Notes under the pieces: model-generated
The model's input: the letters and a program-made list of their open reading frames with translations, nothing else
What the model was told of the DNA's origin: nothing
The model's database searches: none
Made by a program: the position numbers and the translations under genes
In this document: one piece after another, positions 1-13,593 of the stretch
Numbering within the stretch: the stretch's first letter is position 1
How the letters are laid out: the number at the start of each line of letters is the position of its first letter
Assembly (NCBI GenBank): GCA_049609145.1
Contig: JBMYYF010000002.1
Location: 372,839 to 436,838, forward strand
Source: Alphaproteobacteria bacterium
Lineage (GTDB): Bacteria > Pseudomonadota > Alphaproteobacteria > SPJN01
Direction of reading: 5' to 3'
DNA: 64,000 nt

Positions 1-37
1 AAAAATTAAGGAGCAGGAGTGGTTTAAGGCGACCAAT

Positions 38-385
38 TTGCAAGGCGAGCCGGTTGTAATGGCTGATCATACGGCGGAGTTGCAAATGGTTGAAGGAGAG
101 GTTGCCTATATCGGGGCGGACTACGTGATTGAGAAAGTCGAGCCAGGAAAATCCTATTTCGTTTCGGCGGTATCAGATGCTGGTATTGTAATTAGCTCGG
201 CGCTCTTCTTCTCAAACGATTCAGTAGCACTGGTCGATTTGACGCCAATTCCGTTTACAACTTTGATGTTCAATGTGCCCGAGGTTTATACGAACATGCG
301 TGTTCATGTTATGGGGCCGAAGTTAGAGTTTGTGGATGATGAGGTGGATACCGCAATAAGAATTCGCGTTTTGCGAACGCCATAA
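38..385 (+). CDS. hypothetical protein (115 aa), lower-GC segment
   Basis: Intact ORF with TTG/ATG start options. It ends 5 bp from the convergent kinase gene. No recognisable motifs. Confidence 0.35.
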   Translation: MQGEPVVMADHTAELQMVEGEVAYIGADYVIEKVEPGKSYFVSAVSDAGIVISSALFFSNDSVALVDLTPIPFTTLMFNVPEVYTNMRVHVMGPKLEFVDDEVDTAIRIRVLRTP

Positions 386-390
386 TGCGC

Positions 391-2388
391 TCATGCCTGC
401 TTTATCTTTTGAATGATCTTCGCAGCGTTGTTCAATCGGCGCTGCGGATTGCGTTCCAAAAGAGGGTACAGGGCGCGGGCAAGGCCTTCCGGGCAATTGC
501 TCTGGGCTGCATATTCTCTCCGCGAAATAATTTTGCGTTTTGACTTGCCGCGACTATTCTTGATGGTTATCGGGTTTAGTCCACCTAACCATTCAAGGGC
601 AAATACACCGAAAGAAAACCAATCGGCTGCCTCGGTTGTGCGGCGTCCTACAAGTTGTTCAGGCGCCATGTAGTGAAGGCTGCCATATCCGCGGAATGCC
701 GTTTCCTCTTCCGATAATCTGGCAATGCCAAAGTCGATAAGGACCGGATGCATGCCGTCATCCACCAGTATGTTTTCGGGTTTAAGGTCGCGGTGAATAA
801 CGCCAGCACCGTGGAGCGCGGATATAGCATCAACTATCTTGATCAATACGCTGCGTCGTTGTCGTTCTGAATGTTCTTCCAGCATGAGCCGGTCCAGGCC
901 AACGCCGGCAACAAGATCTTGAACGACAAATAGATCGCCGTTTTCCACATCGCCAAAGGCATGGATGCGTACACAGCCCGGGTGCCGGATTCTGCTCGCG
1001 GCTTCGTATTCCGTGGCAAGTGACTTACGCAGGGCATTTCGCGTCGGGTTGTCGTACAGGCGAGAAAGTTCGACGATTTTTACGGCAACTGTACGGTTAT
1101 GGTCAGTATCGTAGGCGCGATAAACGGTGCCAAAGCCACCAGCCCCGATTTTTTTGCCCAGCACATATCCAGAAACACCAGGTTGTCCTTCGTCGAGCAA
1201 GCGACGGGAGGTGTGGATTGCGCTTTCTTCAATTGACAGTGTTTCCATTGTGCTACGAATTTCGTAACAAATCTTGGATAGTCGTTTACGTCGTGCTTCG
1301 GATAAGGCGATTGAATAGAATTTTTCAGCAAGCGCCATGTCGCGTTCGGCATGATAGGCGCGGCCCAAAGCCCGTGCTGTGGCAATCCGATAAAAGGGTG
1401 TCGCGATTTCATCAAAATATGAAAATACCGGTAGCAGTGTGTTGATTGCGTCACTCGACTGTCCCGCATCAAACTGAACCTCTCCGAGAGCGAGATCAAT
1501 ACGCGCACAAAGACCTTCGTTCTGGAGGGTGTTGGCAAGCTCTTTTGCCTGGTTGAGGGTGTGTGTGCTTTCGATGGTTTGCCCGGTGCCAGCCTGATGC
1601 CGGGCTCGTTCAACGAGCGCGAGGCTGTGATAGTCAGAGGTTGGTGCCTTGGATGCGTAAAACCCTATTGCAGGTTCAATATCTTCGAACGCAGAATCAT
1701 ATTGTTTCAGGTTGAGGCGTGACCGCGCGCTATAGGTGGCCAAGCGTGCCCCGATGACAGTGCTGCTAGGAAATGCGGCGCGGAGGCCACCTAGTATATC
1801 AAGCGCGGTGTTGTTGCGCCCTCTATTTTGGTAGCCACGGGCAATATCAAATAGAACAATCTCTTGGCGAAAGGAGTCTTCTTCGGCGCGGGCAACTACC
1901 AAGGCGCGCACAAACAGGGCTAAGGCTTCATCTAAATCCCCACGTTCCATACACAGTCGGCCCAGTTCCCGCATTAAGCGGTATCGGATCGCCGCGCTGG
2001 GCGATGCTGCCTGTTGCAAATCAAGCAAGATGCTGCGGGCTGCTGCCTGCCGCCCGGTGCTTGCAAGGGCCACCGCCCGAACGATTTGAAGGCGCGCCAT
2101 CAGTATATCTTGGCCATTAGGCGCTGCGCTATTTTCCAAAGCAGCAATAGTATCTTCAACTTGGCTAAGGACTGATTGAAGGGGCAGTGAGGTTGCGATT
2201 GCAGTTTCTGCTTCTATCAGTGTTTTGTGGTGTTCAGAGAGGGAGGCTATATCGCCTAGGCGCGCGGTTGGGCTGTCATGCTCGCCGGAAAGCAGCATTC
2301 TTTCGATTTGGTCAAAGGGGTCTGCGCCAATCACAAAACTGATCCGGCGTTGTGTGCCGCCTCTATGGGGCGGGCACGGCGTTGGCAA
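391..2388 (-). CDS. Ser/Thr protein kinase with N-terminal TPR-like helical repeat region (kinase domain C-terminal)
   Basis: C-terminal Hanks kinase motifs are readable: GAGGFGTVY (P-loop), VAVK, HRDLKPENILV, DFG, APE. The N-terminal roughly 400 aa is Ala/Leu-rich helical repeats. The start is ambiguous: Met at 2388 overlaps the upstream gene by 58 nt, and an alternative Met lies at about 2298. Confidence 0.8.
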   Translation of the reverse strand: MPTPCPPHRGGTQRRISFVIGADPFDQIERMLLSGEHDSPTARLGDIASLSEHHKTLIEAETAIATSLPLQSVLSQVEDTIAALENSAAPNGQDILMARLQIVRAVALASTGRQAAARSILLDLQQAASPSAAIRYRLMRELGRLCMERGDLDEALALFVRALVVARAEEDSFRQEIVLFDIARGYQNRGRNNTALDILGGLRAAFPSSTVIGARLATYSARSRLNLKQYDSAFEDIEPAIGFYASKAPTSDYHSLALVERARHQAGTGQTIESTHTLNQAKELANTLQNEGLCARIDLALGEVQFDAGQSSDAINTLLPVFSYFDEIATPFYRIATARALGRAYHAERDMALAEKFYSIALSEARRKRLSKICYEIRSTMETLSIEESAIHTSRRLLDEGQPGVSGYVLGKKIGAGGFGTVYRAYDTDHNRTVAVKIVELSRLYDNPTRNALRKSLATEYEAASRIRHPGCVRIHAFGDVENGDLFVVQDLVAGVGLDRLMLEEHSERQRRSVLIKIVDAISALHGAGVIHRDLKPENILVDDGMHPVLIDFGIARLSEEETAFRGYGSLHYMAPEQLVGRRTTEAADWFSFGVFALEWLGGLNPITIKNSRGKSKRKIISRREYAAQSNCPEGLARALYPLLERNPQRRLNNAAKIIQKIKQA

Positions 2389-3272
2389 ACGGCATCAATT
2401 GTTGCGAAGATGTGGTCCAGCTCTCGTTCAAGATCTGTCGCCAATATGTTTAGGTCGGACACGTTTCCCTGGGCAATGGTGTCACTAAACGGGGTGTGTT
2501 CTGATTGCAGTGCAAGGAACAGGCTGTCTTCGTCAAAGACAACATGAAGCGTCTTGGGGCGTAGCAATTTGTCGAGGCGTGTAAACTCATTCATGACGTT
2601 GGGGGTCATAAGCTTGCGTCCTGCGACTTGGTCAGTGCCATAGAAGTCGTATTTTTTTTCGAACTCAGGGCTCTCTAGGTGAATGCGTGGCCAAGCGGCC
2701 CCTGCAAGGCTTTTCGGATGGAGACCAAAAGTGCCGGATACTGGAGATACGTTATCAATCCGGGCGACTACACCTTTGAAGCTGCGCTGACGATTGTCCT
2801 TGTTTCTGCTGTGTATCACGCTGATTGAATAGGCCTTGCCATCATGTGTGCCTGTTATCGCAACATGTTCCTGTGTGGATGTATAATCAGGTAAAAGCCC
2901 TTTCACCAAAATGGTGGGGTAAAGTGGGGAGAGAGCTTCGTGAAGCGTAAAGTTATCCCGTCGAGCCAGGAGCGGTGGGAGCAGGATTTGCAAGGCTTGG
3001 CTTTTGGGTGCGTGTAGCACCAATGCAGTAATCAGAATAATACCTAGCAGAAGCACGGAAAATAGTACCGCGAAAAATTCGAGCGGGTAATCCCATTTCA
3101 TTACAAGAATAAGAACTATATTGCTTATAACCAGCGCCCCTCCGCCGAAAGTTACAGTATATAGAGTGACCCGTGTCACGCGGGCCCACCAGCGCATCCG
3201 GTTTAGCTGGCCTGTATAAGGTGTGTAATGTTTGTTAACGAACGCATCGCGGTCGGGTTGATCACGGAACAT
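2331..3272 (-). CDS. DUF3137-like membrane protein (two N-terminal TM helices), paralog 2
   Basis: Two hydrophobic helices at the N-terminus, then a soluble domain. Clearly homologous to the adjacent gene (shared motifs GT.HG...S....., FDF.G.DQ..GR...TP). The family assignment comes from resemblance to proteins usually encoded next to lemA. Confidence 0.55.
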   Translation of the reverse strand: MFRDQPDRDAFVNKHYTPYTGQLNRMRWWARVTRVTLYTVTFGGGALVISNIVLILVMKWDYPLEFFAVLFSVLLLGIILITALVLHAPKSQALQILLPPLLARRDNFTLHEALSPLYPTILVKGLLPDYTSTQEHVAITGTHDGKAYSISVIHSRNKDNRQRSFKGVVARIDNVSPVSGTFGLHPKSLAGAAWPRIHLESPEFEKKYDFYGTDQVAGRKLMTPNVMNEFTRLDKLLRPKTLHVVFDEDSLFLALQSEHTPFSDTIAQGNVSDLNILATDLERELDHIFATIDAVCQRRARPIEAAHNAGSVL

Positions 3273-4282
3273 CAGAATGGTCCTGGCTGTTCATTTTGAT
3301 CATGTATCAAAATGTCGACGGCACGAAGTGCTGTATGTATATCACGAGCGACTTGCGCTACCTGTTGGCGTAGTTCGTCGGCAGGCTGTGATAAGATGCC
3401 GCCGTCGATCCAATTTTGCGGCATCTTGTAGGCGATGAAAATGGTGCCATTCTTGAAAATGGCGCTCAAACTATTTGAGGCAAATGCTTGCGAGAATTGA
3501 TACCACTTTTCCATGCGGGCGGGTGTGAAAATTGTTCGGCCCTCCATTTGGTCCGATCCGAGGAAATCGAAGTGATCTTCGAAGTCAGAACTTTCCAGCT
3601 TTATGGTTTCCCATGCTGTGAGGTTTCTAAAGTATCCTTGGTAGCGTCCTGAGGTGCCGCTATTGGGATACAGTGCGTAAGAGCCGGTAAAGGGATATTG
3701 ACTCGGCGTCTTGATAACCAGACCAGAGAATACGGTTTTGGATCTATCCCGACTTTTTTGCGTTAATGTTGTATCCAGCATGGACACGGGGTGCCCATGA
3801 TAAGTGCCACATATAAAGTCTTCGATACGTAGCCCGTTAAAAGACGGCAGTAGCTCTGGGGTTGTCATCTCTTTGAAGACGCTGCGGGGGGGCTTAGGCG
3901 TATACGAAAAATCGCCATAATGGGCGAGAATGCTGGGCACCACCTTCTCTTTCAGCCGCACTAGATATTGTCCATGAATGACTTTGCGATTTCCGAAAGC
4001 GGCCCCGAAAAGGAGAAATGAAAGGCCGAAGCCAATCGTGACATGCTCGCTACCTGACATCATCAATCCGATATTGGCCGCAATAGTGATGGCCGCCACG
4101 AGCATTATGGCAATTTGTGCTATGCGGGCGCGCAGCTCGAGCTTATGTCGTTCGCGAATAAGGGCGGCGCTGATCGGCGTGATTTCCGCATCAAACAAGA
4201 TGGAGAATGCCGGAGAGGCGGTGAAGGAGGTTTCTTCGCCACCAACTGGCGTTCGTTTTAGGCGGGCAGTCGCATCATCCAT
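3272..4282 (-). CDS. DUF3137-like membrane protein (two N-terminal TM helices), paralog 1
   Basis: Same architecture as the downstream paralog. Its stop overlaps the paralog start by 1 nt and it sits 8 nt after the lemA stop. Confidence 0.55.
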   Translation of the reverse strand: MDDATARLKRTPVGGEETSFTASPAFSILFDAEITPISAALIRERHKLELRARIAQIAIMLVAAITIAANIGLMMSGSEHVTIGFGLSFLLFGAAFGNRKVIHGQYLVRLKEKVVPSILAHYGDFSYTPKPPRSVFKEMTTPELLPSFNGLRIEDFICGTYHGHPVSMLDTTLTQKSRDRSKTVFSGLVIKTPSQYPFTGSYALYPNSGTSGRYQGYFRNLTAWETIKLESSDFEDHFDFLGSDQMEGRTIFTPARMEKWYQFSQAFASNSLSAIFKNGTIFIAYKMPQNWIDGGILSQPADELRQQVAQVARDIHTALRAVDILIHDQNEQPGPF

Positions 4283-4290
4283 ATTTTAGT

Positions 4291-4863
4291 TTATCCGCCT
4301 AGATGATCAGCGGCTGGTATGGCGCCTTTGGGGGTTGCATCATCGATTTCGTAGAAGGGCATTTCGCCGATCTTGATCATGCTTGCCACCAAAGAGCTGG
4401 GGAATATCTGGGTCGCATTGTTCAAATCGGTTACAGCTGAGTTGTAGAACCGACGCGCAGCGGCAATATTTGCTTCAACGTCCTGATATGTTTTTTGCGC
4501 TTTTTGCATCACCGTGTCTGACTTTAGATCAGGATAGTTTTCTGCGATAGCTATCAGACGCCCTAACGTGGACTGCACGCCCTCAGCAGCCTTTAGATGA
4601 TCTTGAACGTCAGCGGCACTGCCTGCGTCGTATGATTTTTCAAACGCGGTACGTGCGGCGGTAAGATCTTCCAGCAATGCCCGTTCATGTTCCATAAATT
4701 TTTTGGCAATTGCTAACACGTTGGGGATTAGGTTTGCCCTCTTTTTGATTTGTACATCTATACCGCTTAGTGCCTCTAGGGCGCGGTTGCGACGTTTGAT
4801 AAGCCTCGAATAAAGCACGTATAAAAGGATACCGATTATGGCGATGACATAGATAGCTTCCAT
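4291..4863 (-). CDS. lemA: LemA family protein
   Basis: N-terminal TM helix followed by the characteristic LemA segment ALSGIDVQIKKRANLIPNVLAIAKKFMEHERALLEDL. Length is 190 aa. Confidence 0.85.
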   Translation of the reverse strand: MEAIYVIAIIGILLYVLYSRLIKRRNRALEALSGIDVQIKKRANLIPNVLAIAKKFMEHERALLEDLTAARTAFEKSYDAGSAADVQDHLKAAEGVQSTLGRLIAIAENYPDLKSDTVMQKAQKTYQDVEANIAAARRFYNSAVTDLNNATQIFPSSLVASMIKIGEMPFYEIDDATPKGAIPAADHLGG

Positions 4864-4864
4864 T

Positions 4865-6643
4865 TTATTGTCCTCTCGTCGCGATAGTGGTTTGTGCGAC
4901 TGTTGCTTTTTGGTTCAGCGCAGCGTTTTCGAAGTTTATGAATTCAGGCAGTAGATTGGTCGTGTGCTGCACTCCCGATAACTGCCCCATGTTTGGTATG
5001 ATTTGCAGCTTCGCATTGGGTAGGCTATTTGTTATGGCTTGGGCATTCTCTAAGGTGTTGATGCCATTGCGATCGCCATGACAAACCAAAATTGGCGTAG
5101 TTATTCGCCGCCACTCAAGGCTGGCCTCATGGATTGCCATTGACAATGCTTGGGCGCTGCCGAGGTGATATTCTGAAACGGTGATTTTGGTGCCGAGGAT
5201 TAAGGCTTTTTTCAAGTCTGGCTCCCGTTCGAACAGCGCTTGATCTGCCGGTGAATCCATCAACCAGCGATCAACAAACTTTGTGATGAATGTGTCAGTG
5301 GCGCGCGTGGATAGGACTTTTGCAACAAAGGATAGTGCCCAATCTGATTTAGAAAATTGCCTAAAGAGCCTTGCGCCGATACTATCGCGTTCTTCTTCAG
5401 GCGGAGATACGCGCGGTGAAATGAGGCAAAGCGCAGATAGTGTTGAGGGGCAGGCTATCGCTGCCTCTAGCGCGAAACGGGCACCCACGGCCATCCCAAT
5501 GGCGGGAAATTTTTGGGTGTTAAACCGCCTTTCGAGTACTGTTAGCAGCTCTGCAATGTCTGCCCGGTATTTGCTCCACGAATAATCTGGTTGAAAACTT
5601 GCTTGCCCTCTGCCGGAAAGTTGGGGGCAGATAAAACAAATGTTCATCTCATACAACAATGCGTTCATGCCAGCTGACGCAACATATTCATTCAGGGGGC
5701 TGTTGAAAATAAGAATGGGCTTGCCGATAGCCGGGCCATAAACATGGTAGGCGATCTTGTTGCCATCTTTCAGTTCAACCAAGCTGGGGTTGCGATAAAT
5801 AGCAAGCCCATCAAACGAGGAGGAAGATTGGAGGGTTTTGTCTCTGGTTTCTCGTCCCGGTATTGCAATGCTTAGCATCGTTAAAAGTCGGATGAGATCA
5901 GATTGGCGGTTCACACCAACCTTCGCGAAAACGGATTTAAGGTGATTGCGCGCAGTGTTGTGAGCGATGTTGAGTTGGTCTGCCGCTTCCTTTAGCGCCA
6001 TTCCCTGTTGCAGGTAACGCACTAGTTCGGTTTCAGCATGGGTGAGGCCAAGGCCGATTGTGGTTGAGGGGGTGCCCTTCTGCTCAGCGGTGAGTGGAAG
6101 AAGGAAAATGGATATTTGGTTCTTTTCACCGATCCGGTTGATGACCGCGATTAGGGGTGATGCGTCTTCCGCTGCTGGTAAGCGCACTAGTCGCGGCCCA
6201 CCTCCATCGTCTCTTGCCATCACCAAGGCCGTCATGAATGGGTCACGCAACTCTGTTTCGTGCAGGTCAAAACGTTGCCCTAGGCCCAGCCCCTTACAAT
6301 AGGGGTTGATGAGCGAAAGTGCCTCGCTGCCTGCTGCCATAACTTTTAGATCCATGGATAATAGTAGACGGCAGCGGTCCAAGGGGTGCACTTCGTCCGT
6401 TCGGTCGAGCTGATGGCTAACGCGTTCGGCAATTTTGAGCGCGCGGTCTAGATGGGATTGCAACTCACCATATGTCTCAAGTTCTTCGAGGTTTAGCTCA
6501 AGGCGCTCAAGCTCGGAAAGCATGTCCAATGCCGCGTCGGCGGTATCGGCTTCGCTTGCGTATCGGTAGATAAAGTCCATTAGTGTCATATAGATATCAA
6601 GTGATGCATCTGCTTTTGGTGCTATATCGGACTTCGTCGCCAT
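4865..6643 (-). CDS. LuxR-family HTH transcriptional regulator fused to a C-terminal alpha/beta-hydrolase-fold domain (probably non-catalytic)
   Basis: LuxR-type HTH is readable mid-protein (LTHAETELVRYLQQGMALKEAADQLNIAHNTARNHLKSVFAKVGV). The C-terminal roughly 300 aa has alpha/beta-hydrolase topology, but the nucleophile elbow reads GMAVG (Ala in place of Ser) and the HG position reads NS. A 1-nt gap separates it from lemA. Confidence 0.7.
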   Translation of the reverse strand: MATKSDIAPKADASLDIYMTLMDFIYRYASEADTADAALDMLSELERLELNLEELETYGELQSHLDRALKIAERVSHQLDRTDEVHPLDRCRLLLSMDLKVMAAGSEALSLINPYCKGLGLGQRFDLHETELRDPFMTALVMARDDGGGPRLVRLPAAEDASPLIAVINRIGEKNQISIFLLPLTAEQKGTPSTTIGLGLTHAETELVRYLQQGMALKEAADQLNIAHNTARNHLKSVFAKVGVNRQSDLIRLLTMLSIAIPGRETRDKTLQSSSSFDGLAIYRNPSLVELKDGNKIAYHVYGPAIGKPILIFNSPLNEYVASAGMNALLYEMNICFICPQLSGRGQASFQPDYSWSKYRADIAELLTVLERRFNTQKFPAIGMAVGARFALEAAIACPSTLSALCLISPRVSPPEEERDSIGARLFRQFSKSDWALSFVAKVLSTRATDTFITKFVDRWLMDSPADQALFEREPDLKKALILGTKITVSEYHLGSAQALSMAIHEASLEWRRITTPILVCHGDRNGINTLENAQAITNSLPNAKLQIIPNMGQLSGVQHTTNLLPEFINFENAALNQKATVAQTTIATRGQ

Positions 6644-6791
6644 ACCGCCCTAATCCCCCTTAGTTTTCTTGGAGCACTTAGCAAAATAGATATATATCGG
6701 GAACTTATTCAGATATAGTCCATTTGAGCTATGTTGACTGATTGGCTCCCTCATTAGGCTGTGGATGATCCATTGCCGAAGGAGGCTCCTG

Positions 6792-7874
6792 ATGCGTCTG
6801 CACTTAAAACTACCGCTTGTTTTTGCTGTGTTTTTGGGGCTTTTTTCCCCCGCATTTGCTGCCAATGATCAAGCGCGCGAAGCTTATTACGAAGGCATCA
6901 AAGCGCGTGATGCTAACGACTATCAGCGCTCACATAGCCTGTTATGCGTGGCCGCCAAGGCCGAATACCCAGATGCTGTAATGGAGTGCGGCATGACCTA
7001 TTTGTTAGGTGCGGGTGTCGCCAGAAATGTACAAAATGGTATTTTGCTATTAGCTCGAGCAGCTGAGCTGAAGGTGGGGGCTGCCGCATTTAGACTTTCG
7101 TTGCTTTATTTGAAGGGCGAAGTAGTGCAACGCGATCTTGCTAAGGCGAAGACCTATTTGCTGCAAGGGGCGAATTTAGGTAGCGGTGAAGCGGAATATG
7201 CATTGGCGAATGCTTATATGCGGGGCATGACAGTAGATGGGGTTGTTGTATTTGCAAAGGATGTAGTGCAGGCAGCCATATGGATGGAGAAAGCAGCGAG
7301 CTACTCAATGCAGTCCTCATTCGATTATGGCATTGTCCTTTATCAAGGCATTGGACGCCCATCTGACAAAATGGAGGGGTTGAAATGGATTGAGATGTCT
7401 ATCGGTATGGGCGGCATGAAAGCGGCTGATGTGCTGACCAAAATCTATCGGACCGATGCAGAGGTAAAGGCGCTATATGATGAACAAGGCCTGCAAATGG
7501 TTCAACAACATGAGGCCGGCGAGGGGGGACGTATCTATGATGTCGTGGGCCCGGGGTTCGGTCGTGCGCCGCCTGCGGGAATGGTTATGGTTGACCCTAC
7601 CTTCTATTTCCGACTTGGCTTGCGGGCCGCCTACGGGTTAGGGGTCTCAGGTGGACCAGTTGCTGCCGTTAAATATTGGCAACATGACATCGACTCCAAT
7701 GTTGGCTTCTCGGGGTCAATGTTTTTGCTTGGCATGGCCTATTATACTGGAACGGGTGTTGTTGAGGACAAAGTTAAAGGTATTGCCCTGCTGCAACGCC
7801 TAAATATGGGCTCACATGAAGGGGCAGCTGCTTTCTTGCGGTCCATTAAGGCGCCCCTTAAGCCTCCCAAGTGA
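6792..7874 (+). CDS. secreted Sel1-like repeat protein
   Basis: Signal peptide MRLHLKLPLVFAVFLGLFSPAFA. Repeated Sel1-like motifs (..A..Y..GIGV..D...A..W..KAA..G...A). RBS AAGGAGG lies 7 nt upstream of the ATG at 6792. Confidence 0.75.
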   Translation: MRLHLKLPLVFAVFLGLFSPAFAANDQAREAYYEGIKARDANDYQRSHSLLCVAAKAEYPDAVMECGMTYLLGAGVARNVQNGILLLARAAELKVGAAAFRLSLLYLKGEVVQRDLAKAKTYLLQGANLGSGEAEYALANAYMRGMTVDGVVVFAKDVVQAAIWMEKAASYSMQSSFDYGIVLYQGIGRPSDKMEGLKWIEMSIGMGGMKAADVLTKIYRTDAEVKALYDEQGLQMVQQHEAGEGGRIYDVVGPGFGRAPPAGMVMVDPTFYFRLGLRAAYGLGVSGGPVAAVKYWQHDIDSNVGFSGSMFLLGMAYYTGTGVVEDKVKGIALLQRLNMGSHEGAAAFLRSIKAPLKPPK

Positions 7875-8107
7875 GGCGATGCTGCGGCATCCAGATTATC
7901 ATTTCATCAATATTGCTCGCCTCTGTCGGCAGCTTCTCTGTTTTAGTGTACGCACAAGGAAACCGCTGTCGAAGCTCATAGGGCGTCGAGGCTAAACTTA
8001 CCGTTGTTAGTTTCCAATTCCCTGCTAAGTCATTGATTTCTTGGGTGGTCTATCAAAGGCAGTTTCCATCTAACCTATAGAAATCACTAAGATAAGACCT
8101 AATTCGT

Positions 8108-8150
8108 AATGATGGGGTCAGGTGTTCAAATCACCTAAGCGGCACCACCA
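8108..8150 (+). other. orphan tRNA 3-prime end fragment (T-arm AGGTG-TTCAAAT-CACCT, acceptor 3-prime strand, discriminator, CCA), putative att-site remnant
   Basis: The sequence ggggtcaggtgttcaaatcacctaagcggcacca has a canonical T-stem/loop and a CCA tail. No complementary 5-prime acceptor strand or anticodon arm lies upstream, so this is not a complete tRNA gene. Confidence 0.45.
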
Positions 8151-9385: not shown

Positions 9386-9538
9386 ATTATGCCCCGAAAA
9401 CTGTTGTGCCCGTTAGGTAAGGCAAGCGTGGCCAAAAAGAAAGGGTGGCGGGGGTCAATTTGCGCCTATTGCGGCGTGGCACCGCGTATGCGGGTATGAT
9501 GGTGCTTGCTAAGACAGGTGTGGATTGAGGGGGCGAGC

Positions 9539-11071
9539 ATGACAGACGCGCAGAAAAACTTGGATGACAAGACACCCATTTTGGTGGGGGCCGGGCAATA
9601 TGTAGAGCGTCAGGCAACGCCGCATGGGCCAATGTATTTGGCCTCACAAGCGGCGGCGGGAGCGGTTGCCGATTGTGGCGCACCAAATATCGCCGCTCAT
9701 ATCGATACGATCGGTGTGATTCGCCTGTTCTCCGATTCATTGGGACCGTGGACCGGCAAACATGGGCGCAGCAACAATCCACCGCAATCAATTGCCAAGG
9801 CAATCGGGGCGTCCCCGAAAACACGCATCTACAGCCCCGTAGGCGGCAATGAACCACTATCTTTGCTGATCGAATGTGCCAAGGATATTGCTGAAGGCAA
9901 AAAAGAGATGGCACTGATCGCCGGATCGGAGGCTATAAAAAACCAGCGTCAGGCCGATCGTGATGATCAGACATTGTCATGGGATGAAGTATTTGATGAG
10001 CCGTTTGATGATCGGTTGGCCCCGCCTTCTTTGTTGACGGTGCAGGAACGCTATTCCGGTCTGGCAACACCCATTCGCACCTACAGCCTGTTTGATCAGG
10101 CCCGGCGCCATGCGCAGCGGGCAGACCTTGCCTCCTACAGTAATGCCATGGCGGCGTTGATGGCACCTTTGAGTGAAGTTGCCGCCCAAAACCCCTATGC
10201 CCAGTTTCCTGAAAGCTACAGCGCCGATGACATTGCCAAGTCACGGCAGCTCACACACATGTATACCGGGCGTATGGTGGCGCGTGATGCGGTCAATTTG
10301 GGTGCCGCTGTCCTCGTGTGCAGTGTTGGGAAGGCCAAGCAGCTTGCCATCCCTCAAGATCGCTGGGTGTTTTTGCATGGATTGGCCGAAGGCAAGGAAC
10401 TGCGCCCAAGTGAACGGCCAAATCTTGCCACCTCACCCATGGCGGGCAAGGTTGTGGATCGGGCACTCGATCTGGCGGAAAAAGACATCGCAGGCATTGA
10501 TGGGCTTGATATTTATAGCTGTTTTCCCTGTGCGGTAAGTATGTTGACGGATCATCTGGGTATTCCAACCGATGGCAGCCGCGCGCTGACACTGACCGGC
10601 GGGCTGCCTTATCTTGGAGGCCCCGGCAATAATTACAGTATGCACGCTTTGGCAGAGGCTCTTTGGCGCTGCCGCCAGCGACCGGATGATTTTACGCTGG
10701 TCACGTGCAATGGAGGCTTTTTGTCCAAACATGCCACCGGCGTTTTCTCTGCGGTGCCCAGTTTGAGAGACTGGAGCCGCGTTGAGACACGGATTTCGCA
10801 ATCCGGGCTGGATAAAAAGCCGTTGGCGACGCACCCGACCGGTGGGCGCATCATCTCATACGCCGTGGATTACTGGGGCAGCGACACCCCCACAGGCGCG
10901 TGTGTTCTGGCTGAAACTGATACGGGTGAGCGGTTTATCTGCACAACAGCAGAAGGTGACAACGCCACCGCCGCAAGTTTTGCCGATGCCGATGACCTGA
11001 CAGGCAGGCTGATCCTTACGCGCCCGGCCAATGTGGAACAAGAGACGTTCCATTTCGCGTTGTCGCTATAA
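9539..11071 (+). CDS. thiolase-like (SCP-x/thiolase superfamily) protein
   Basis: Thiolase-fold signatures are present (GGLPYLGGPGNNYSMHALAE, CNGGFLSKHATG). RBS GAGGGGG precedes the ATG at 9539. The upstream in-frame extension is rejected. Confidence 0.65.
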   Translation: MTDAQKNLDDKTPILVGAGQYVERQATPHGPMYLASQAAAGAVADCGAPNIAAHIDTIGVIRLFSDSLGPWTGKHGRSNNPPQSIAKAIGASPKTRIYSPVGGNEPLSLLIECAKDIAEGKKEMALIAGSEAIKNQRQADRDDQTLSWDEVFDEPFDDRLAPPSLLTVQERYSGLATPIRTYSLFDQARRHAQRADLASYSNAMAALMAPLSEVAAQNPYAQFPESYSADDIAKSRQLTHMYTGRMVARDAVNLGAAVLVCSVGKAKQLAIPQDRWVFLHGLAEGKELRPSERPNLATSPMAGKVVDRALDLAEKDIAGIDGLDIYSCFPCAVSMLTDHLGIPTDGSRALTLTGGLPYLGGPGNNYSMHALAEALWRCRQRPDDFTLVTCNGGFLSKHATGVFSAVPSLRDWSRVETRISQSGLDKKPLATHPTGGRIISYAVDYWGSDTPTGACVLAETDTGERFICTTAEGDNATAASFADADDLTGRLILTRPANVEQETFHFALSL

Positions 11072-11151
11072 AATCTTCGGCGGGATGCCGATTGAAGGCT
11101 GGTCTTTGCTGCTCTATGTTGCAACCAGAGGAAGTGTTGAGGGGAAATCTA

Positions 11152-13593
11152 ATGCGTAGTTTGAAACTGGCGGTAGCCATTGTGGCTACCCAGCTTGGGT
11201 TGGTTGTGTCTGTGTCTGCGCAAGAGGCGGGGGACGTGCTGGAGGTGGATGTTGCTGAGGAAGGCACAGCCCAGGAAAATTCCGTTGCGCCGCAGAAGAA
11301 CGCGCAGCTTGATGAAATTATCGTAACGGCGCAAAAGCGCGAAAAGCGTTTGCAAGATGTGCCTATGGCTATTTCTGCCTTCGGGCGCGAGGCCATTGAG
11401 GCGAACGAGATTAACAACATTGAAGATTTGACCAAGTTGGTGCCGTCTTTGCGGGTAACGCCGGCAGATGACCCGACCAATACCAGCCTGCGCATTCGCG
11501 GTGTTGGCACAGATGTTTATTCCATCGCGGTTGAACCGAACGTGTCGGTTGTTGTTGATGAGGTGCCCTTGGCGCGTACAGCCATTGCCAGCTTTGAATT
11601 TGCCGATCTGGAGCGGGTGGAGGTGATGCGCGGCCCTCAAGGCACGCTTTTTGGCAAAAATTCGACCGCCGGGTTGATCCACGTTATTTCGCGCGACCCG
11701 TCGCAGGATTTTGAGGCGTTCGCGCGTGCTGTTCATGAACAGCCAAATGATTTGCCCGGCAGTTTGACGAATTTTCAGGCTGGGGCCAGCGGTCCCGTAT
11801 CTGACAGTGTGGGATTGCGTCTTACCGGTTTTTACAAATTTGTCGGGGGGCATTTGGAAAATGTACTCAATGGCGAAAATTTGCCTGATCGGGAATCCTT
11901 TGGTGCACGCGGCAAACTGATGTGGGATGGCCCGGCACTGACCGCCCGGTTGAACACGGAATTCCAGCGTTCCACGGGGCCTTCCACCCCCTTCGTACCG
12001 CGCACCGTAAACCCCGATGTGGCCTCACGCAGCCCGGAAATCACCTATGGTGAGGAAAACACCAAGACCAAAGCATATGACAATGCCGTTTCCGACGTTG
12101 ATAATTTTGGTACATCGTTAAAGCTGGATTGGGATTTGGGGGCGGTCACGCTGACCTCTGTTACCGGCTGGCGTTATTTCCACATCTTGCGTGATTTTAC
12201 CGTGCCCGAAGTGGATGGGGACCGGATTGATCTGCCGCGCAATGGTGGTGATCGTGACATTCAAACCCTGACGCAAGAGGTGCGCATAACGTCGAATGAT
12301 GCCGGGGCGTTTGAATATACCGTAGGCGCGCTGTGGTTCCAAAACCGCTTGCGCAACTTCTTTGAACGACGCATTGCGAATGTGCCGACGACCTATTTGA
12401 TTGTCGCAGGCTCACCGCTGCCATTGCCCTATATCGTGCTGCCAGAAGAACTTGAAGCTGTGCCGGGGGAAAGCTTCGGATCGTATGAGCGCACCCGTGG
12501 GTTGGTGCGCACCCGTAATCTTGGCGTATTTGCGCAATCAACCTGGCACGCAACGGATCGGTTGCATGTGACAGCGGGGGCGCGGTTCATCTATGAAAAG
12601 CAAATCGGGGAGCGTCAATCGCACAGTCATCTGTATAATGAAACAACGGGAATTGAATTTCAGGAAGCGGATTTCAACATCAGCGATGCAACGATTGAAG
12701 ATCAAACTGTGATCGGCACGTTTTCCTTGCAATATGATGTGGCAGAAAACGCGCGCCTTTATGGCACAATCTCAACGGGTTATCGCGGCGGCGCGTTTGA
12801 TTTTGCCAGCTCCAACCCGGAAGAGGCTTTCGCCAATCCGGTAGAGCCAGAAACCTCCTTGTCGTTTGAAATTGGCAGCAAGTCGCGTTTGTTTGACAAT
12901 CGGTTGGAAATCAACGTGGCCTTGTTCCGCACAGTGTTTGAGGATTTTCAGGCGCAGATCACGGATTTGGGGGATGATGATAATCCGTTGGCTATTTCTG
13001 CCCTAGCGTTCCGGCTGGATAATGCGGGCGAACTAGAAACCAAGGGGATCGAGATTGATTTTCAGGCCCGGCCAAGTGCCTCCTTGTTTATGTTCGGCTC
13101 ATTGCTTTTTGCCGATGCGAAGTTCAACGAGTTTGATACACAGTGCTTTGTCGGGCAGGAGCCCGGCGAAAATGGCGGTGTAGATGGTGATGGAAACGGC
13201 ACATGCGACACCCAAAGTGTGGCCGGGGGCCGTATGCCCAATGCCCCGAAATGGAGCGCGTCGCTCAGCGGGCGTTATGAACATCAGCTCAATCGCAATA
13301 ATGGGCTGGCGTATTTGCAAGTCACCGGGCGGTATGTAGGCGAAGTGCAGTTCAGTGCCGAGCAACATCCGGGGGCGGTGCATGATGCTTATCAAATTTG
13401 GGATATGCGTTTGGGGTGGATCGGCCTGGACGACCGGCTGGAAGTGGCAGCCTATGTGAAGAACGTGTTCGATCAGCACTACGCCTCTGCCATTGTGCCG
13501 TTTTCGATCACCAATGATCGGCGTGATCTGGCGCATTTTGTGCCGCGGGATACGGATCGAAACTTTGGCCTTTCTGTCGGGTATCAGTTCTAG
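11152..13593 (+). CDS. TonB-dependent receptor
   Basis: Signal peptide, then a TonB box/plug (DEIIVTAQKREKRLQDVPMAISAF), then a long beta-barrel ending in a C-terminal aromatic residue (...GYQF). Confidence 0.85.
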   Translation: MRSLKLAVAIVATQLGLVVSVSAQEAGDVLEVDVAEEGTAQENSVAPQKNAQLDEIIVTAQKREKRLQDVPMAISAFGREAIEANEINNIEDLTKLVPSLRVTPADDPTNTSLRIRGVGTDVYSIAVEPNVSVVVDEVPLARTAIASFEFADLERVEVMRGPQGTLFGKNSTAGLIHVISRDPSQDFEAFARAVHEQPNDLPGSLTNFQAGASGPVSDSVGLRLTGFYKFVGGHLENVLNGENLPDRESFGARGKLMWDGPALTARLNTEFQRSTGPSTPFVPRTVNPDVASRSPEITYGEENTKTKAYDNAVSDVDNFGTSLKLDWDLGAVTLTSVTGWRYFHILRDFTVPEVDGDRIDLPRNGGDRDIQTLTQEVRITSNDAGAFEYTVGALWFQNRLRNFFERRIANVPTTYLIVAGSPLPLPYIVLPEELEAVPGESFGSYERTRGLVRTRNLGVFAQSTWHATDRLHVTAGARFIYEKQIGERQSHSHLYNETTGIEFQEADFNISDATIEDQTVIGTFSLQYDVAENARLYGTISTGYRGGAFDFASSNPEEAFANPVEPETSLSFEIGSKSRLFDNRLEINVALFRTVFEDFQAQITDLGDDDNPLAISALAFRLDNAGELETKGIEIDFQARPSASLFMFGSLLFADAKFNEFDTQCFVGQEPGENGGVDGDGNGTCDTQSVAGGRMPNAPKWSASLSGRYEHQLNRNNGLAYLQVTGRYVGEVQFSAEQHPGAVHDAYQIWDMRLGWIGLDDRLEVAAYVKNVFDQHYASAIVPFSITNDRRDLAHFVPRDTDRNFGLSVGYQF

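Follow-up and report, generated by a model that had tools for sequence, protein, structure and literature searches.

A LemA-DUF3137 gene cluster of uncultured Alphaproteobacteria with a TPR-Hanks kinase, an FHA-membrane protease and a shared palindromic operator

In a 64,000-nt stretch of alphaproteobacterial DNA (the window), five minus-strand genes between positions 391 and 6643 encode a LuxR-type regulator with a pseudo-hydrolase domain, a LemA protein, two DUF3137 proteins and a TPR protein with a C-terminal Hanks kinase domain. Do these genes form one functional unit, and what could a Ser/Thr kinase do beside two families of membrane proteins? The open reading frames, their order and their strand are as described in the original prediction, and its family assignments, including LemA and DUF3137, hold in profile searches, all of them scoring above the Pfam gathering thresholds (Table 1).

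Table 1. Features of the cluster and its surroundings in the window
Feature	Position	Strand	Evidence or remark
FHA-TM-trypsin-like serine protease (567 aa), last ~128 codons	1..385	+	Pfam FHA, Trypsin_2
Soluble Ser/Thr kinase, 647 aa	391..2334	-	Pfam Pkinase and TPR_7/TPR_12
DUF3137 paralogue B (kinase-coupled type), 313 aa	2331..3272	-	Pfam DUF3137, 61.5 bits (cut-off 26.1)
DUF3137 paralogue A (LemA-adjacent type), 336 aa	3272..4282	-	Pfam DUF3137, 63.4 bits (cut-off 26.1)
LemA family protein, 190 aa	4291..4863	-	Pfam LemA, 139.4 bits (cut-off 26.2)
Regulator, 592 aa	4865..6643	-	Pfam GerE and Hydrolase_4
16-bp palindromic operator (TAGTCCATTTGAGCTA)	6716..6731	.	72 nt upstream of regulator ATG, 33 nt upstream of divergent Sel1
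Secreted Sel1-repeat protein, 369 aa, signal peptide, divergent from regulator	6765..7874	+	Pfam Sel1, 71.3 bits
tRNA 3'-half-like piece (variable region, T-arm, acceptor 3' strand, CCA)	8108..8147	+	Rfam tRNA model

Gene order and conservation of the cluster

The four junctions of the five-gene run have spacings of +1, +8, -1 and -2 nt, as read from the sequence. The regulator and LemA genes are separated by 1 nt (TAA-a-ATG) and the LemA and DUF3137-A genes by 8 nt (TAA-actaaaat-ATG), the two DUF3137 genes overlap by 1 nt (TGATG), and the TGA stop codon of DUF3137-B is overlapped by the GTG start codon of the kinase gene (GTGA). Depending on the start codon chosen, the kinase reading frame comprises positions 391-2388 or 391-2334 (665 or 647 aa); the GTG at 2334 agrees with the N-termini of the orthologues and with the public gene call. 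This tight coupling fits the single transcript that had been proposed, as does the observation that the only operator-bearing promoter region lies upstream of the regulator gene, with no internal site at up to two mismatches. Consensus scans gave no clear sigma-70 promoter or terminator, a result that reads neither for nor against one transcript. Most likely, the five genes in the window constitute a single translationally coupled operon driven by the regulator promoter, formed after one inversion that moved the DUF3137-B and kinase genes to a position behind DUF3137-A.

The cluster is present in three genomes (window/L006, L003 and L005), all of uncultured Alphaproteobacteria known from metagenomes, with protein identities of 33 to 76%. 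The original prediction had named a lack of synteny in other genomes as grounds for its own rejection, and it survives on this point, since kinase and regulator homologues recur beside lemA and DUF3137 genes in the two other genomes. The colinear order of the five genes did not prove to be the conserved unit; a single inversion separates it from the order in L003 and L005. In L003 and L005, the kinase gene converges on a LuxR-LemA-DUF3137-A unit, which ends in the gene of an FHA-TM-trypsin-like protease. In the window, the protease gene converges on the kinase gene; reading frame 38-385 is the C-terminus of L006:7747-9450, and the protease had been overlooked because its gene runs past the left edge of the window. 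Judged by these comparisons, the conserved unit is a larger gene set that includes the protease, not the colinear five-gene operon. The locus extends at least 10 kb past the window with three more DUF3137 genes, a second LemA gene and the remnant of a second regulator gene.

The cluster had also been placed in lower-G+C DNA adjoining a tRNA fragment, and this was confirmed, the fragment with modest support. The G+C content is 0.504 at window positions 1-8150 versus 0.552 elsewhere in the window, and it lies below that of the flanks at all three loci. A 53-nt search aligned the tRNA-like piece to model positions 36-71 of 71 as a 5'-truncated tRNA followed by CCA (18.5 bits, E 0.038); ARAGORN and Rfam searches of long stretches did not find it, and the window contains no intact tRNA. 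Situated at the margin of the lower-G+C DNA, the piece may be what remains of an att site. Fragments of IS3-type transposases lie near the cluster. An independent Logan contig of the same genome stops at window position 8131, inside the tRNA-like piece.

Domain architecture of the encoded proteins

The regulator consists of a conserved N-terminal region without a Pfam match (residues 1-195), a LuxR/GerE helix-turn-helix (HTH) domain (residues 200-253; 33.2 bits, cut-off 23.5) and an alpha/beta-hydrolase domain (residues ~300-570; Hydrolase_4, 34.5 bits, cut-off 27); it has no autoinducer-binding or receiver domain. The orthologues are 43-49% identical, and the recognition helix AHNTARNHLKS is invariant among them. 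Comparison with the hydrolases 3bwx and 4uhh of the PDB revealed that the nucleophilic Ser is replaced by Ala, Val and Ala in the three orthologues and the His by Gln. The hydrolase domain is thus degenerate, as claimed, and by its residues a catalytically dead pseudo-enzyme.

LemA carries a single N-terminal TM helix (residues 4-22) and shares 74-76% of its residues with its counterparts at the other loci. From hydropathy and the four K/R residues directly after the TM helix, its helical domain is predicted to be cytoplasmic; the topology of LemA is disputed in the literature, and the C-terminal domain of its relative MamQ was modelled as luminal (PMC3905215).

DUF3137 paralogue A comprises a cytoplasmic N-terminal tail, a TM hairpin and a TtfA/CCDC47-like C-terminal domain, and paralogue B a DUF3137 domain and two TM helices. 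The description of this pair as duplicated in tandem was misleading: A and B are only 21% identical, and each is closer to its own counterpart in L003 (33% and 36%, respectively), the identities within a type between genomes being 33-36%. These values mark them as old paralogues rather than products of a recent tandem duplication. The counterpart of B, L003:2175-3140, has a stop codon that overlaps the start of the L003 kinase gene by 4 nt. Type A adjoins LemA, and type B is start/stop-coupled to the kinase in the window and in this one other genome. In the predicted model (pLDDT 89), the DUF3137 domain folds like mycobacterial TtfA and CCDC47; with about 10% of residues identical to TtfA, a shared function cannot be taken for granted.

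In the kinase, a TPR-like region (residues ~1-385) precedes the Hanks domain (Pkinase, 145.9 bits, cut-off 31.7; residues 408-659 of 665), and the Pfam positions bear out the reversed layout noted originally. The G-loop, VAxK, HRDLKPEN, DFG and APE motifs are invariant in the three orthologues (41-50% identity), which predicts an intact and active kinase. Only one full-length homologue was found in a search of 5.8 billion proteins. The full-length protease, 42-44% identical between genomes, has an FHA domain (23.7 bits, cut-off 20.7), a TM helix (residues 133-151) and a Trypsin_2 domain (56.3 bits). The FHA domain retains the GR..SRQH motif, a canonical Asn is not evident, and H202, D268 and S362 are invariant; with triad and GR/SRQH motifs intact, the protease is predicted to be active.

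A palindromic operator shared by the cluster genes

In the three genomes, nearly all transcription units of the cluster are preceded by a 16-bp palindrome (TAGCNCAWWTGNGCTA), 50-73 nt from the start codon. The three loci contain 17 intergenic sites, 13 of which were not used to define the pattern, versus 0.65 expected; none of 2,000 shuffles reached 17, and about 150 kb of control loci contained no site with up to two mismatches. The site at 6716-6731 is the only one of this quality in the 64-kb window, and equivalent palindromes precede the regulator gene in L003, L005 and L006. This excess defines one regulon, which comprises the regulator, one or two LemA proteins, three to five DUF3137 proteins, the TPR-Hanks kinase and the FHA-TM-protease, and in two of the three genomes also secreted Sel1-repeat proteins. 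From its co-occurrence with the sites, the LuxR-type protein presumably binds the palindrome. At four regulator promoters, by our reading, a -10-like hexamer starts 21 nt after the palindrome, which places the operator center near -41.5.

The Sel1 gene in the window, whose product begins with a hydrophobic signal, shares the operator-bearing intergenic region with the regulator gene and probably belongs to the regulon. In L003 and L006, the cluster is flanked by related Sel1 genes, also with operators; no Sel1 gene was found within 10 kb of the L005 cluster.

Proposed function, alternatives and known systems

Hydropathy and the positive-inside rule predict that the FHA, kinase, LemA and DUF3137 domains are cytoplasmic and that the protease domain and the Sel1 proteins are periplasmic. 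We infer, with a probability of roughly 40%, that the kinase, by way of phosphothreonine and an FHA switch, controls the periplasmic protease on LemA/DUF3137 membrane scaffolds. A dimer of the LuxR-type protein would bind the palindromes and activate the whole set, its own operon among them; the pseudo-hydrolase domain and the N-terminal domain of this protein would sense a ligand or a partner. DUF3137-B, whose stop codon overlaps the kinase start in two genomes, would dock the TPR-kinase at the cytoplasmic face of the inner membrane, and LemA would form a second membrane complex with DUF3137-A, both pairings being taken from gene order alone. The kinase would then phosphorylate a threonine on a cluster protein, candidates being the conserved T113-A-P-Q in the protease's juxtamembrane linker and a tail on one of the membrane partners. 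The cytoplasmic FHA domain would read this phosphothreonine, and the periplasmic protease domain would be recruited or switched, with the co-regulated Sel1 proteins as likely clients. If true, the cluster, which ties a Ser/Thr kinase to the LemA and DUF3137 families, would be an envelope-spanning device for inside-out signalling or remodelling.

The original prediction had also considered a conflict system. In such an anti-phage system, the TPR-kinase would sense an invader protein and trigger the protease through phosphorylation, with LemA and DUF3137 as membrane-damaging abortive-infection effectors; we consider this unlikely. A rare and patchy distribution over three genomes, the lower G+C content at all three loci, the adjoining tRNA 3'-half and transposase fragments, and several divergent DUF3137 paralogues would suit it, as would the good scores of the kinase domain against the defence-kinase models mad6 and PD-T4-6, a weak match of the protease to RT-Protease_XI, and the location of one stand-alone LemA-DUF3137 pair (L017) among toxin-antitoxin genes and a large helicase gene. 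However, the PADLOC matches are limited to generic kinase or protease domains; LemA and DUF3137 had none, and the regulator had a single weak one (CARF3, E 1e-4). No known defence genes lie beside any of the three clusters, the flanks in L005 and the window are metabolic or transport genes, and most stand-alone pairs also lie among metabolic genes. The conservation of LemA is unlike that of fast-evolving defence parts, a search of 2.9 million viral contigs found relatives of neither the DUF3137 subfamily nor the protease, and in our reading a multi-promoter regulon with co-regulated secreted Sel1 proteins suits envelope physiology better. The conflict claim thus gained no specific support, and the sensing of membrane perturbation, also put forward in the original prediction, is hypothetical.

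Slightly less probable still is a TtfA-like accessory role for the DUF3137 proteins, which would assist a transporter or biogenesis machine with genes elsewhere, the kinase, FHA-protease and regulator only governing export of lipids or envelope precursors. TtfA (Rv0383c/MSMEG_0736, PDB 6t84), the trehalose-monomycolate transport factor, is a cytoplasmic accessory factor with a membrane anchor and binds the transporter MmpL3; DUF3137 shares this topology of membrane anchor and cytoplasmic domain (PMC6593404). Against this reading stand the low identity to TtfA (about 10%), the lack of a conserved gene for an RND or any other transporter in or beside the clusters, and the constant partner of DUF3137, which is LemA. 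In comparison with TtfA and eukaryotic CCDC47, DUF3137 is anchored by a two-helix hairpin instead of one TM helix, no MmpL3-type partner gene lies nearby, and the DNA is that of an alphaproteobacterium, which has no mycolic acids.

In magnetosomes, the membrane-anchored trypsin-like proteases MamE and MamO and the TPR protein MamA act together with MamQ. A membrane-remodelling or compartment module akin to part of this machinery, in which kinase and FHA domain only tune assembly, is improbable. The cluster, in an alphaproteobacterium, does combine LemA with an S1 protease anchored in the membrane and with a TPR protein, and LemA matches NCBIfam MamQ (E 7e-17); within the LemA family, MamQ alone has been linked to a process in the cell, the formation of magnetosome membranes (PMC4902198). 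Yet with a score of 61.6 bits, far under the equivalog cut-off of 250, LemA is not a MamQ equivalog, and other mam-like genes (MamB/M, I, L, K) are absent from the window and the 18-kb contig. Moreover, the protease combines Trypsin_2 with FHA and is not of the HtrA/PDZ or haem-binding MamE type, and the TPR region is joined to an active kinase. What the protein shares with MamQ and the wider LemA family (PF04011; structure 2ETD) is family membership (139 bits) and one N-terminal TM helix.

That the five genes are functionally unrelated co-directional neighbours, with which the uninformative promoter and terminator scans are compatible, is contradicted by both synteny and operators: six families are found together in all three genomes despite the inversion, the operator is shared across units, and starts and stops overlap.

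The preferred reading, a kinase-FHA switch on a membrane protease, has counterparts in Hanks-FHA modules such as PpkA-Fha1-PppA threonine phosphorylation in type VI secretion and mycobacterial PknB-FhaA/GarA. Shared with these are an active Hanks kinase encoded beside an FHA protein that keeps GR and SxxH, and the principle of a kinase that writes and an FHA domain that reads at the membrane. In contrast to these modules, the cluster kinase is soluble, has N-terminal TPRs and lacks a TM segment, PASTA domains and a periplasmic sensor, in line with a PknB_PASTA_kin score of 132.9 versus the cut-off of 450; a TM helix connects the FHA domain with a trypsin-like protease domain in the periplasm, the partners are LemA and DUF3137, and neither a phosphatase nor a secretion-system gene was found in the cluster. 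Sel1 proteins encoded with a signalling system are also known from ExoR-ExoS-ChvI of the Rhizobiales, ExoR being a periplasmic Sel1-repeat protein controlled by proteolysis in Alphaproteobacteria (PMC4550343). By analogy, the cluster protease may cleave the Sel1 proteins; unlike that system, the cluster has no ExoS/ChvI two-component pair, and its own protease bears an FHA domain. With LuxR class II activators on the lux-box, the regulator shares a GerE-type HTH and a palindrome at a fixed promoter-proximal position, but its HTH is central, between the N-terminal domain and the dead hydrolase.

The recurrent pairing of LemA with DUF3137, part of the original prediction, was found at eight independent loci. 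In the stand-alone pairs (L008, L013/L014, L015, L017), as in the second pair of L006, a type-A DUF3137 gene follows LemA within 0-50 nt. The stand-alone pairs do without the kinase, FHA-protease, regulator, extra DUF3137 paralogues and operator of the clusters in the three genomes, and the signalling genes may therefore modulate a basic activity of LemA-DUF3137 itself.

Gene cluster, its conservation and its origin

The original prediction assigned the genes at window 391-6643 to a LuxR-type regulator with a hydrolase-like domain, LemA, two DUF3137 paralogues and a TPR-kinase, and these assignments were correct, all Pfam matches lying above the curated cut-offs (see table). As read from the sequence, the junctions are TAA-a-ATG between regulator and LemA (gap of 1 nt, +1), TAA-actaaaat-ATG between LemA and DUF3137-A (gap of 8 nt, +8), TGATG between DUF3137-A and DUF3137-B (overlap of 1 nt, -1), and GTGA between DUF3137-B and the kinase (-2), where the GTG start overlaps the TGA stop. 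From this start, which is also that of the public gene call, the kinase is 647 aa long, and its N-terminus lines up with those of the orthologues. Public proteins of the source, labelled 'Alphaproteobacteria bacterium', are MGB0920651.1, MGB0920653.1 and MGB0920654.1; as the source is a metagenome-assembled genome (MAG), immediate experiments are limited. An operator scan placed a single site upstream of the five genes, and consensus scans of the region for sigma-70 promoters and terminators stayed at chance level and were uninformative.

Features of the window and of the loci compared with it (positions without a prefix refer to the window)
Feature	Position	Strand	Description
Regulator	4865-6643	-	ORF; GerE + Hydrolase_4 (Pfam)
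LemA	4291-4863	-	ORF; LemA (Pfam)
DUF3137-A	3272-4282	-	ORF; DUF3137 (Pfam); LemA-adjacent paralogue
DUF3137-B	2331-3272	-	ORF; DUF3137 (Pfam); kinase-coupled paralogue
Kinase	391-2388 (ORF), start GTG at 2334	-	Pkinase, C-terminal, after TPR matches
FHA-protease C-terminus	38-385	+	ORF; full protein 567 aa, converges on kinase
Operator	6716-6731		121-nt regulator–Sel1 intergenic region; sole site with <= 2 mismatches in 64 kb
tRNA 3'-half	8108-8147		5'-truncated tRNA, model positions 36-71, 18.5 bits, E 0.038 (53-nt search); then CCA
521-aa ORF	9506-11071	+	
TonB-dependent receptor gene	11092-13593		
589-aa fusion	22407-24176	+	Abhydrolase_1 (residues 35-281), short-chain dehydrogenase (325-514)
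Second LemA–DUF3137 pair	L006:14002-14965		LemA 189 aa, DUF3137 309 aa; ~6-7 kb left of window position 1
Operator of regulator remnant	L006:15025-15040		perfect
IS3-type OrfA fragments	L020:2-70, L003:13761-13949		HTH_Tnp_1
tRNA-Leu(CAA), intact	L005:3361-3447		5.5 kb upstream of L005 cluster
LemA–DUF3137 pairs	L008:9336-10951, L013:3419-5092, L015:4013-5674, L017:6970-9264		L008 from a metagenome
DUF3137 alone	L016:10001-10951		in the L005 MAG
Tandem DUF3137 pairs	L009:9524-11842, L010:9713-11597, L011:9680-11590, L012:2-1344		large metagenome contigs; long copy, then shorter

The exact LemA and kinase proteins were found on an 18,163-nt Logan contig of the source genome (L001, L006, L020), which is identical to window 1-8131 and extends ~10 kb further left. 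It carries the complete gene for an FHA–TM–trypsin-like protein (FHA-protease) and, left of it and in this order, genes for a secreted Sel1 protein, a DUF3137 protein, a four-TM protein, a second LemA–DUF3137 pair and another DUF3137 protein. The 18 kb thus contain DUF3137 five times and LemA twice. A 101-aa ORF with an operator upstream precedes the second pair and matches the regulator N-terminus only; together they look like a decayed second regulator–LemA–DUF3137 unit. The DUF3137 protein of this pair shows 62% identity to the copy in L003, a cluster in another genome, and only 32% to the window copy.

Full-length homologues were few in a search of 5.8 billion proteins, namely two of the regulator (50% and 44% identity) and one of the TPR-kinase (P0001, 50% identity). 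Their contigs carry the same gene set, and the cluster is therefore real and conserved. The order is regulator → LemA → DUF3137-A → FHA-protease → ← kinase ← DUF3137-B in L003, and DUF3137 → regulator → LemA → DUF3137-A → FHA-protease → ← kinase, then DUF3137 →, in L005, a 3.07-Mb MAG contig. The window order, regulator → LemA → A → B → kinase → ← FHA-protease, would result from one inversion of protease, kinase and DUF3137-B. What is conserved is thus the cluster as a gene set; the putative operon of five genes is an arrangement local to this genome. The remaining window is ordinary metabolic DNA (malate synthase G, Na+/H+ exchanger, acyl-CoA dehydrogenase, GH31 glycosidase). It includes a fusion of a hydrolase and a dehydrogenase domain and, directly upstream of the TonB-dependent receptor gene, a 521-aa ORF with no Pfam match at E <= 1e-5.

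A horizontal origin of the cluster segment, as originally proposed, is plausible. The segment that starts with the Logan contig on the left and reaches window position ~8150 has a G+C content of 0.50, against 0.55 in the remaining window, and a sequence resembling a tRNA 3'-half lies at its edge. ARAGORN, and Rfam on longer stretches, found no tRNA at this position. The 18 kb available contain neither an intact tRNA nor an annotated integrase gene nor a repeat partner; a direct-repeat partner of the tRNA piece was also absent from every fetched locus. The Logan assembly ends within the tRNA piece, at window 8131, and at its other end inside an IS3-type transposase gene. IS3-type OrfA fragments lie at the cluster-side contig ends in two of the three genomes, and the assemblies break at them in both L020 and L003. 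The intact tRNA-Leu near the L005 cluster has a 3' end unlike that of the tRNA piece, so that these two clusters do not share an att site.

The pseudo-hydrolase regulator and a shared operator

The regulator contains a LuxR/GerE-type HTH (PF00196, 33.2 bits vs a cut-off of 23.5), which matched the GerE structure 1fse (E 1.9e-5) in a PDB profile search that yielded nothing beyond the HTH. Its N-terminal domain had no Pfam match even at E 5. An alpha/beta-hydrolase fold was matched as well (Hydrolase_4, 34.5 bits), and comparison with solved hydrolases revealed Ala in place of the nucleophile Ser and Gln in place of the catalytic His. The elbow reads GMAVG, GFVGG and SFAGG in the three regulator orthologues and the His position GQL in all three. 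As both residues are lost throughout, an active hydrolase is ruled out, and the suspected degenerate domain proved to be a pseudo-enzyme. The HTH recognition helix is identical in the three regulators.

When the DNA preceding the three regulator genes and the regulator remnant was compared, a common element emerged, the 16-bp palindrome TAGCNCAWWTGNGCTA. With up to 3 mismatches, 25 sites were found in L003, L005 and L006, 17 of them within 5.5 kb of intergenic DNA (shuffles, 0.65; maximum, 5 in 2000), and 13 of these 17 had played no part in deriving the pattern. Control loci totalling about 150 kb contained no site with <= 2 mismatches, and matches in the rest of the window were at chance level. 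The sites precede the regulator operon, the FHA-protease gene, the kinase or DUF3137-B unit, extra DUF3137 genes, Sel1 genes and a gene for a small secreted protein, almost always 50-73 nt before the start codon. At four regulator promoters a -10-like hexamer begins 21 nt past the palindrome, whose centre would then fall near -41.5, which we read as lux-box geometry. From these sites we conclude that the cluster is one co-regulated set, a regulon; its LuxR-type protein presumably binds the palindrome TAGCCCAATTGGGCTA.

LemA, DUF3137, kinase and protease

LemA (PF04011, 139.4 bits vs 26.2; TM helix at residues 4-22) is 74-76% identical across the clusters, far above the other parts (33-50%). 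Both DUF3137 paralogues belong to PF11335 (63.4 and 61.5 bits vs 26.1). DUF3137-A is 33% identical to the LemA-adjacent copies and DUF3137-B 36% to the kinase-coupled copy in L003, while the identity between the two is 21%. A recent tandem duplication is ruled out by this low identity and by the closer L003 counterpart of each paralogue; these comparisons show two old types.

Of 1.84 billion representatives searched with HMMER, 1513 were DUF3137 relatives, only eight of them at E <= 1e-30, and a word-indexed homologue search with DUF3137-A returned only itself. A scan of GTDB-representative contigs with four DUF3137 sequences returned only the already known MAG, which means that the source genome was not among the representatives searched. 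All eight close matches were traced to their loci. They comprise window DUF3137-A (P0121), the LemA-adjacent copy in L005 (P0129), the DUF3137 paired with the second LemA of the source genome (P0130), one gene without LemA (L016), and four genes that immediately follow LemA in stand-alone pairs (L008, L013/L014, L015 and L017). The recurrent two-gene module of the original prediction is thus supported by the stand-alone pairs. None has a kinase, protease or regulator gene nearby, nor did a metagenome scan find these in any of its five loci; the signalling extension is known from three genomes only. The pairs lie mostly amid metabolic genes.

L008 and L016 share a metabolic neighbourhood (FMO-like monooxygenase, short-chain dehydrogenase, P450, Amidohydro_3) with and without LemA, respectively, indicating that LemA can drop out of the pair. 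The L017 pair, with a 1-nt overlap, is followed by TumE and HVO_A0114-family genes amid toxin–antitoxin genes (PIN, MazE/PemK) and a gene for a DEAD/ResIII helicase of 1052 aa. No other LemA–DUF3137 context resembles a mobile or defence neighbourhood. In L013 and L015 an enoyl-CoA hydratase and an alpha/beta hydrolase gene come next, in swapped order, which may reflect either mere synteny between related organisms or a connection with the regulator's hydrolase-like domain. In L009-L012, more distant DUF3137 genes form tandem pairs with no LemA gene nearby, so pairing among paralogues seems to recur independently of LemA.

An AlphaFold2 model of DUF3137-A, redone with an 88-sequence alignment after a three-sequence alignment had given pLDDT 66, reached pLDDT 89.2 and pTM 0.86; in it an alpha/beta domain comes after a long hairpin of helices. 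TtfA was its sole Foldseek match (E 2.2e-5, probability 1.0), as it was for the shallow first model, so that the predicted fold is TtfA-like. TtfA, which is anchored in the membrane and has a cytoplasmic domain, binds the transporter MmpL3 and is required for its function (PMC6593404). The DUF3137–TtfA/CCDC47 fold match suggests that a membrane-anchored helper domain may be common to Gram-negatives, mycobacteria and eukaryotes. In full-text literature searches no paper joined TtfA with CCDC47, and DUF3137 was mentioned in just two papers, a single time in each.

The kinase is of the Hanks type (Pkinase, 145.9 bits), with G-loop, VAxK, HRDLKPEN, DFG and APE invariant in three orthologues. PknB/Stk1 PASTA kinases have an N-terminal kinase, a TM helix and extracellular PASTA domains, whereas here the kinase domain is C-terminal and no TM helix is present; the PASTA-kinase profile scored 132.9 bits vs an NCBIfam cut-off of 450, over the kinase domain only. 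The FHA-protease carries, on its predicted cytoplasmic end and off the window, a probable FHA domain (PF00498, 23.7 and 26.2 bits vs 20.7) in which G29-R30 and S47-R48-Q49-H50 are invariant and the canonical Asn-Gly motif is not evident. A TM helix (residues 133-151) and a trypsin-like domain follow (Trypsin_2, PF13365, clan PA; 56.3 bits vs 27.6), with the triad H202, D268 and S362 invariant in three orthologues. Its C-terminal 187 aa had no Pfam match even at E 5. By their conserved motifs, both kinase and protease are predicted to be active. Hydropathy and the positive-inside rule place the LemA and DUF3137 domains, kinase, regulator and FHA domain probably in the cytoplasm, and the protease domain probably in the periplasm, together with the Sel1 proteins, which bear signal peptides. 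For LemA this placement is an inference, since its topology is disputed (PMC3905215).

A possible envelope-spanning signalling apparatus

We propose, with a probability of roughly 0.3, that the cluster encodes an undescribed envelope-spanning apparatus. It would comprise a core of LemA and TtfA-like DUF3137, a split receptor kinase formed by DUF3137-B and the TPR-kinase, phosphothreonine signalling to an FHA-tethered periplasmic protease, and the pseudo-hydrolase regulator. LemA and DUF3137-A would form a membrane platform, and the TPR region of the kinase may dock on DUF3137-B; the genes of these two proteins are translationally coupled in two genomes. The kinase would write phosphothreonine, for which T113 in a conserved Thr-Ala-Pro/Ala-Gln motif of the FHA–TM linker is a candidate acceptor; the FHA domain would read it, and this would switch or recruit the protease. 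Candidate clients in the periplasm are the Sel1 proteins, by analogy with the Sel1 protein ExoR, which periplasmic proteolysis controls in Alphaproteobacteria (PMC4550343), and the regulator would autoactivate the whole gene set. For this mechanism, from phosphorylation to autoactivation, we consider the odds to be somewhat short of even.

A defence or conflict system, one of the options in the original prediction, has circumstantial support from the rarity of the cluster, a G+C content below that of the flanks in all three loci, and the IS3 fragments and tRNA piece at its edges. However, nothing specific speaks for it. The PADLOC matches are generic, covering only the kinase domain (residues 22-305 of 659 of mad6, and PD-T4-6) and the protease domain. 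PADLOC-DB v2 gave no match for either LemA or DUF3137, LemA is highly conserved, and neighbouring defence genes are lacking. Scans of viral contigs gave no relatives of DUF3137 or the protease and only two distant genes for LemA. The known PADLOC-DB v2 systems (MADS, PD-T4-6, Mokosh and others) are ruled out, as their system-specific partner proteins were unmatched. DUF3137 might, from its fold, act as a TtfA-like transporter helper, but the cluster has no conserved transporter gene. A magnetosome-like role in membrane remodelling would rest on the similarity of LemA to MamQ, stated to be the sole LemA-family protein tied to a process (PMC4902198), but the score of 61.6 bits is far below the MamQ equivalog cut-off of 250 (NCBIfam NF040966). 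Chance adjacency of the five genes is excluded by the synteny and operator results.

LemA, widespread according to the literature, and DUF3137, to which ~1500 of 1.84 billion cluster representatives belong, have no known biochemical role. Here they are wired to readable parts: a kinase, an FHA reader fused to a protease, and a transcription factor with a defined operator. If the proposed apparatus exists, it would offer the first experimental handle on both families, and DUF3137, TtfA and eukaryotic CCDC47 would represent one ancient class of membrane-protein helper domains. The membrane-crossing tether between FHA domain and periplasmic protease would be an unusual route from cytoplasmic phosphorylation to the control of periplasmic proteolysis. 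Kinase–FHA signalling and LuxR-type regulons are already known in kind; as far as can be told, the LemA/DUF3137 assembly, the fusion of FHA domain, TM helix and protease, the combination of an HTH with an adjoining pseudo-hydrolase and the fold link between DUF3137 and TtfA are new.
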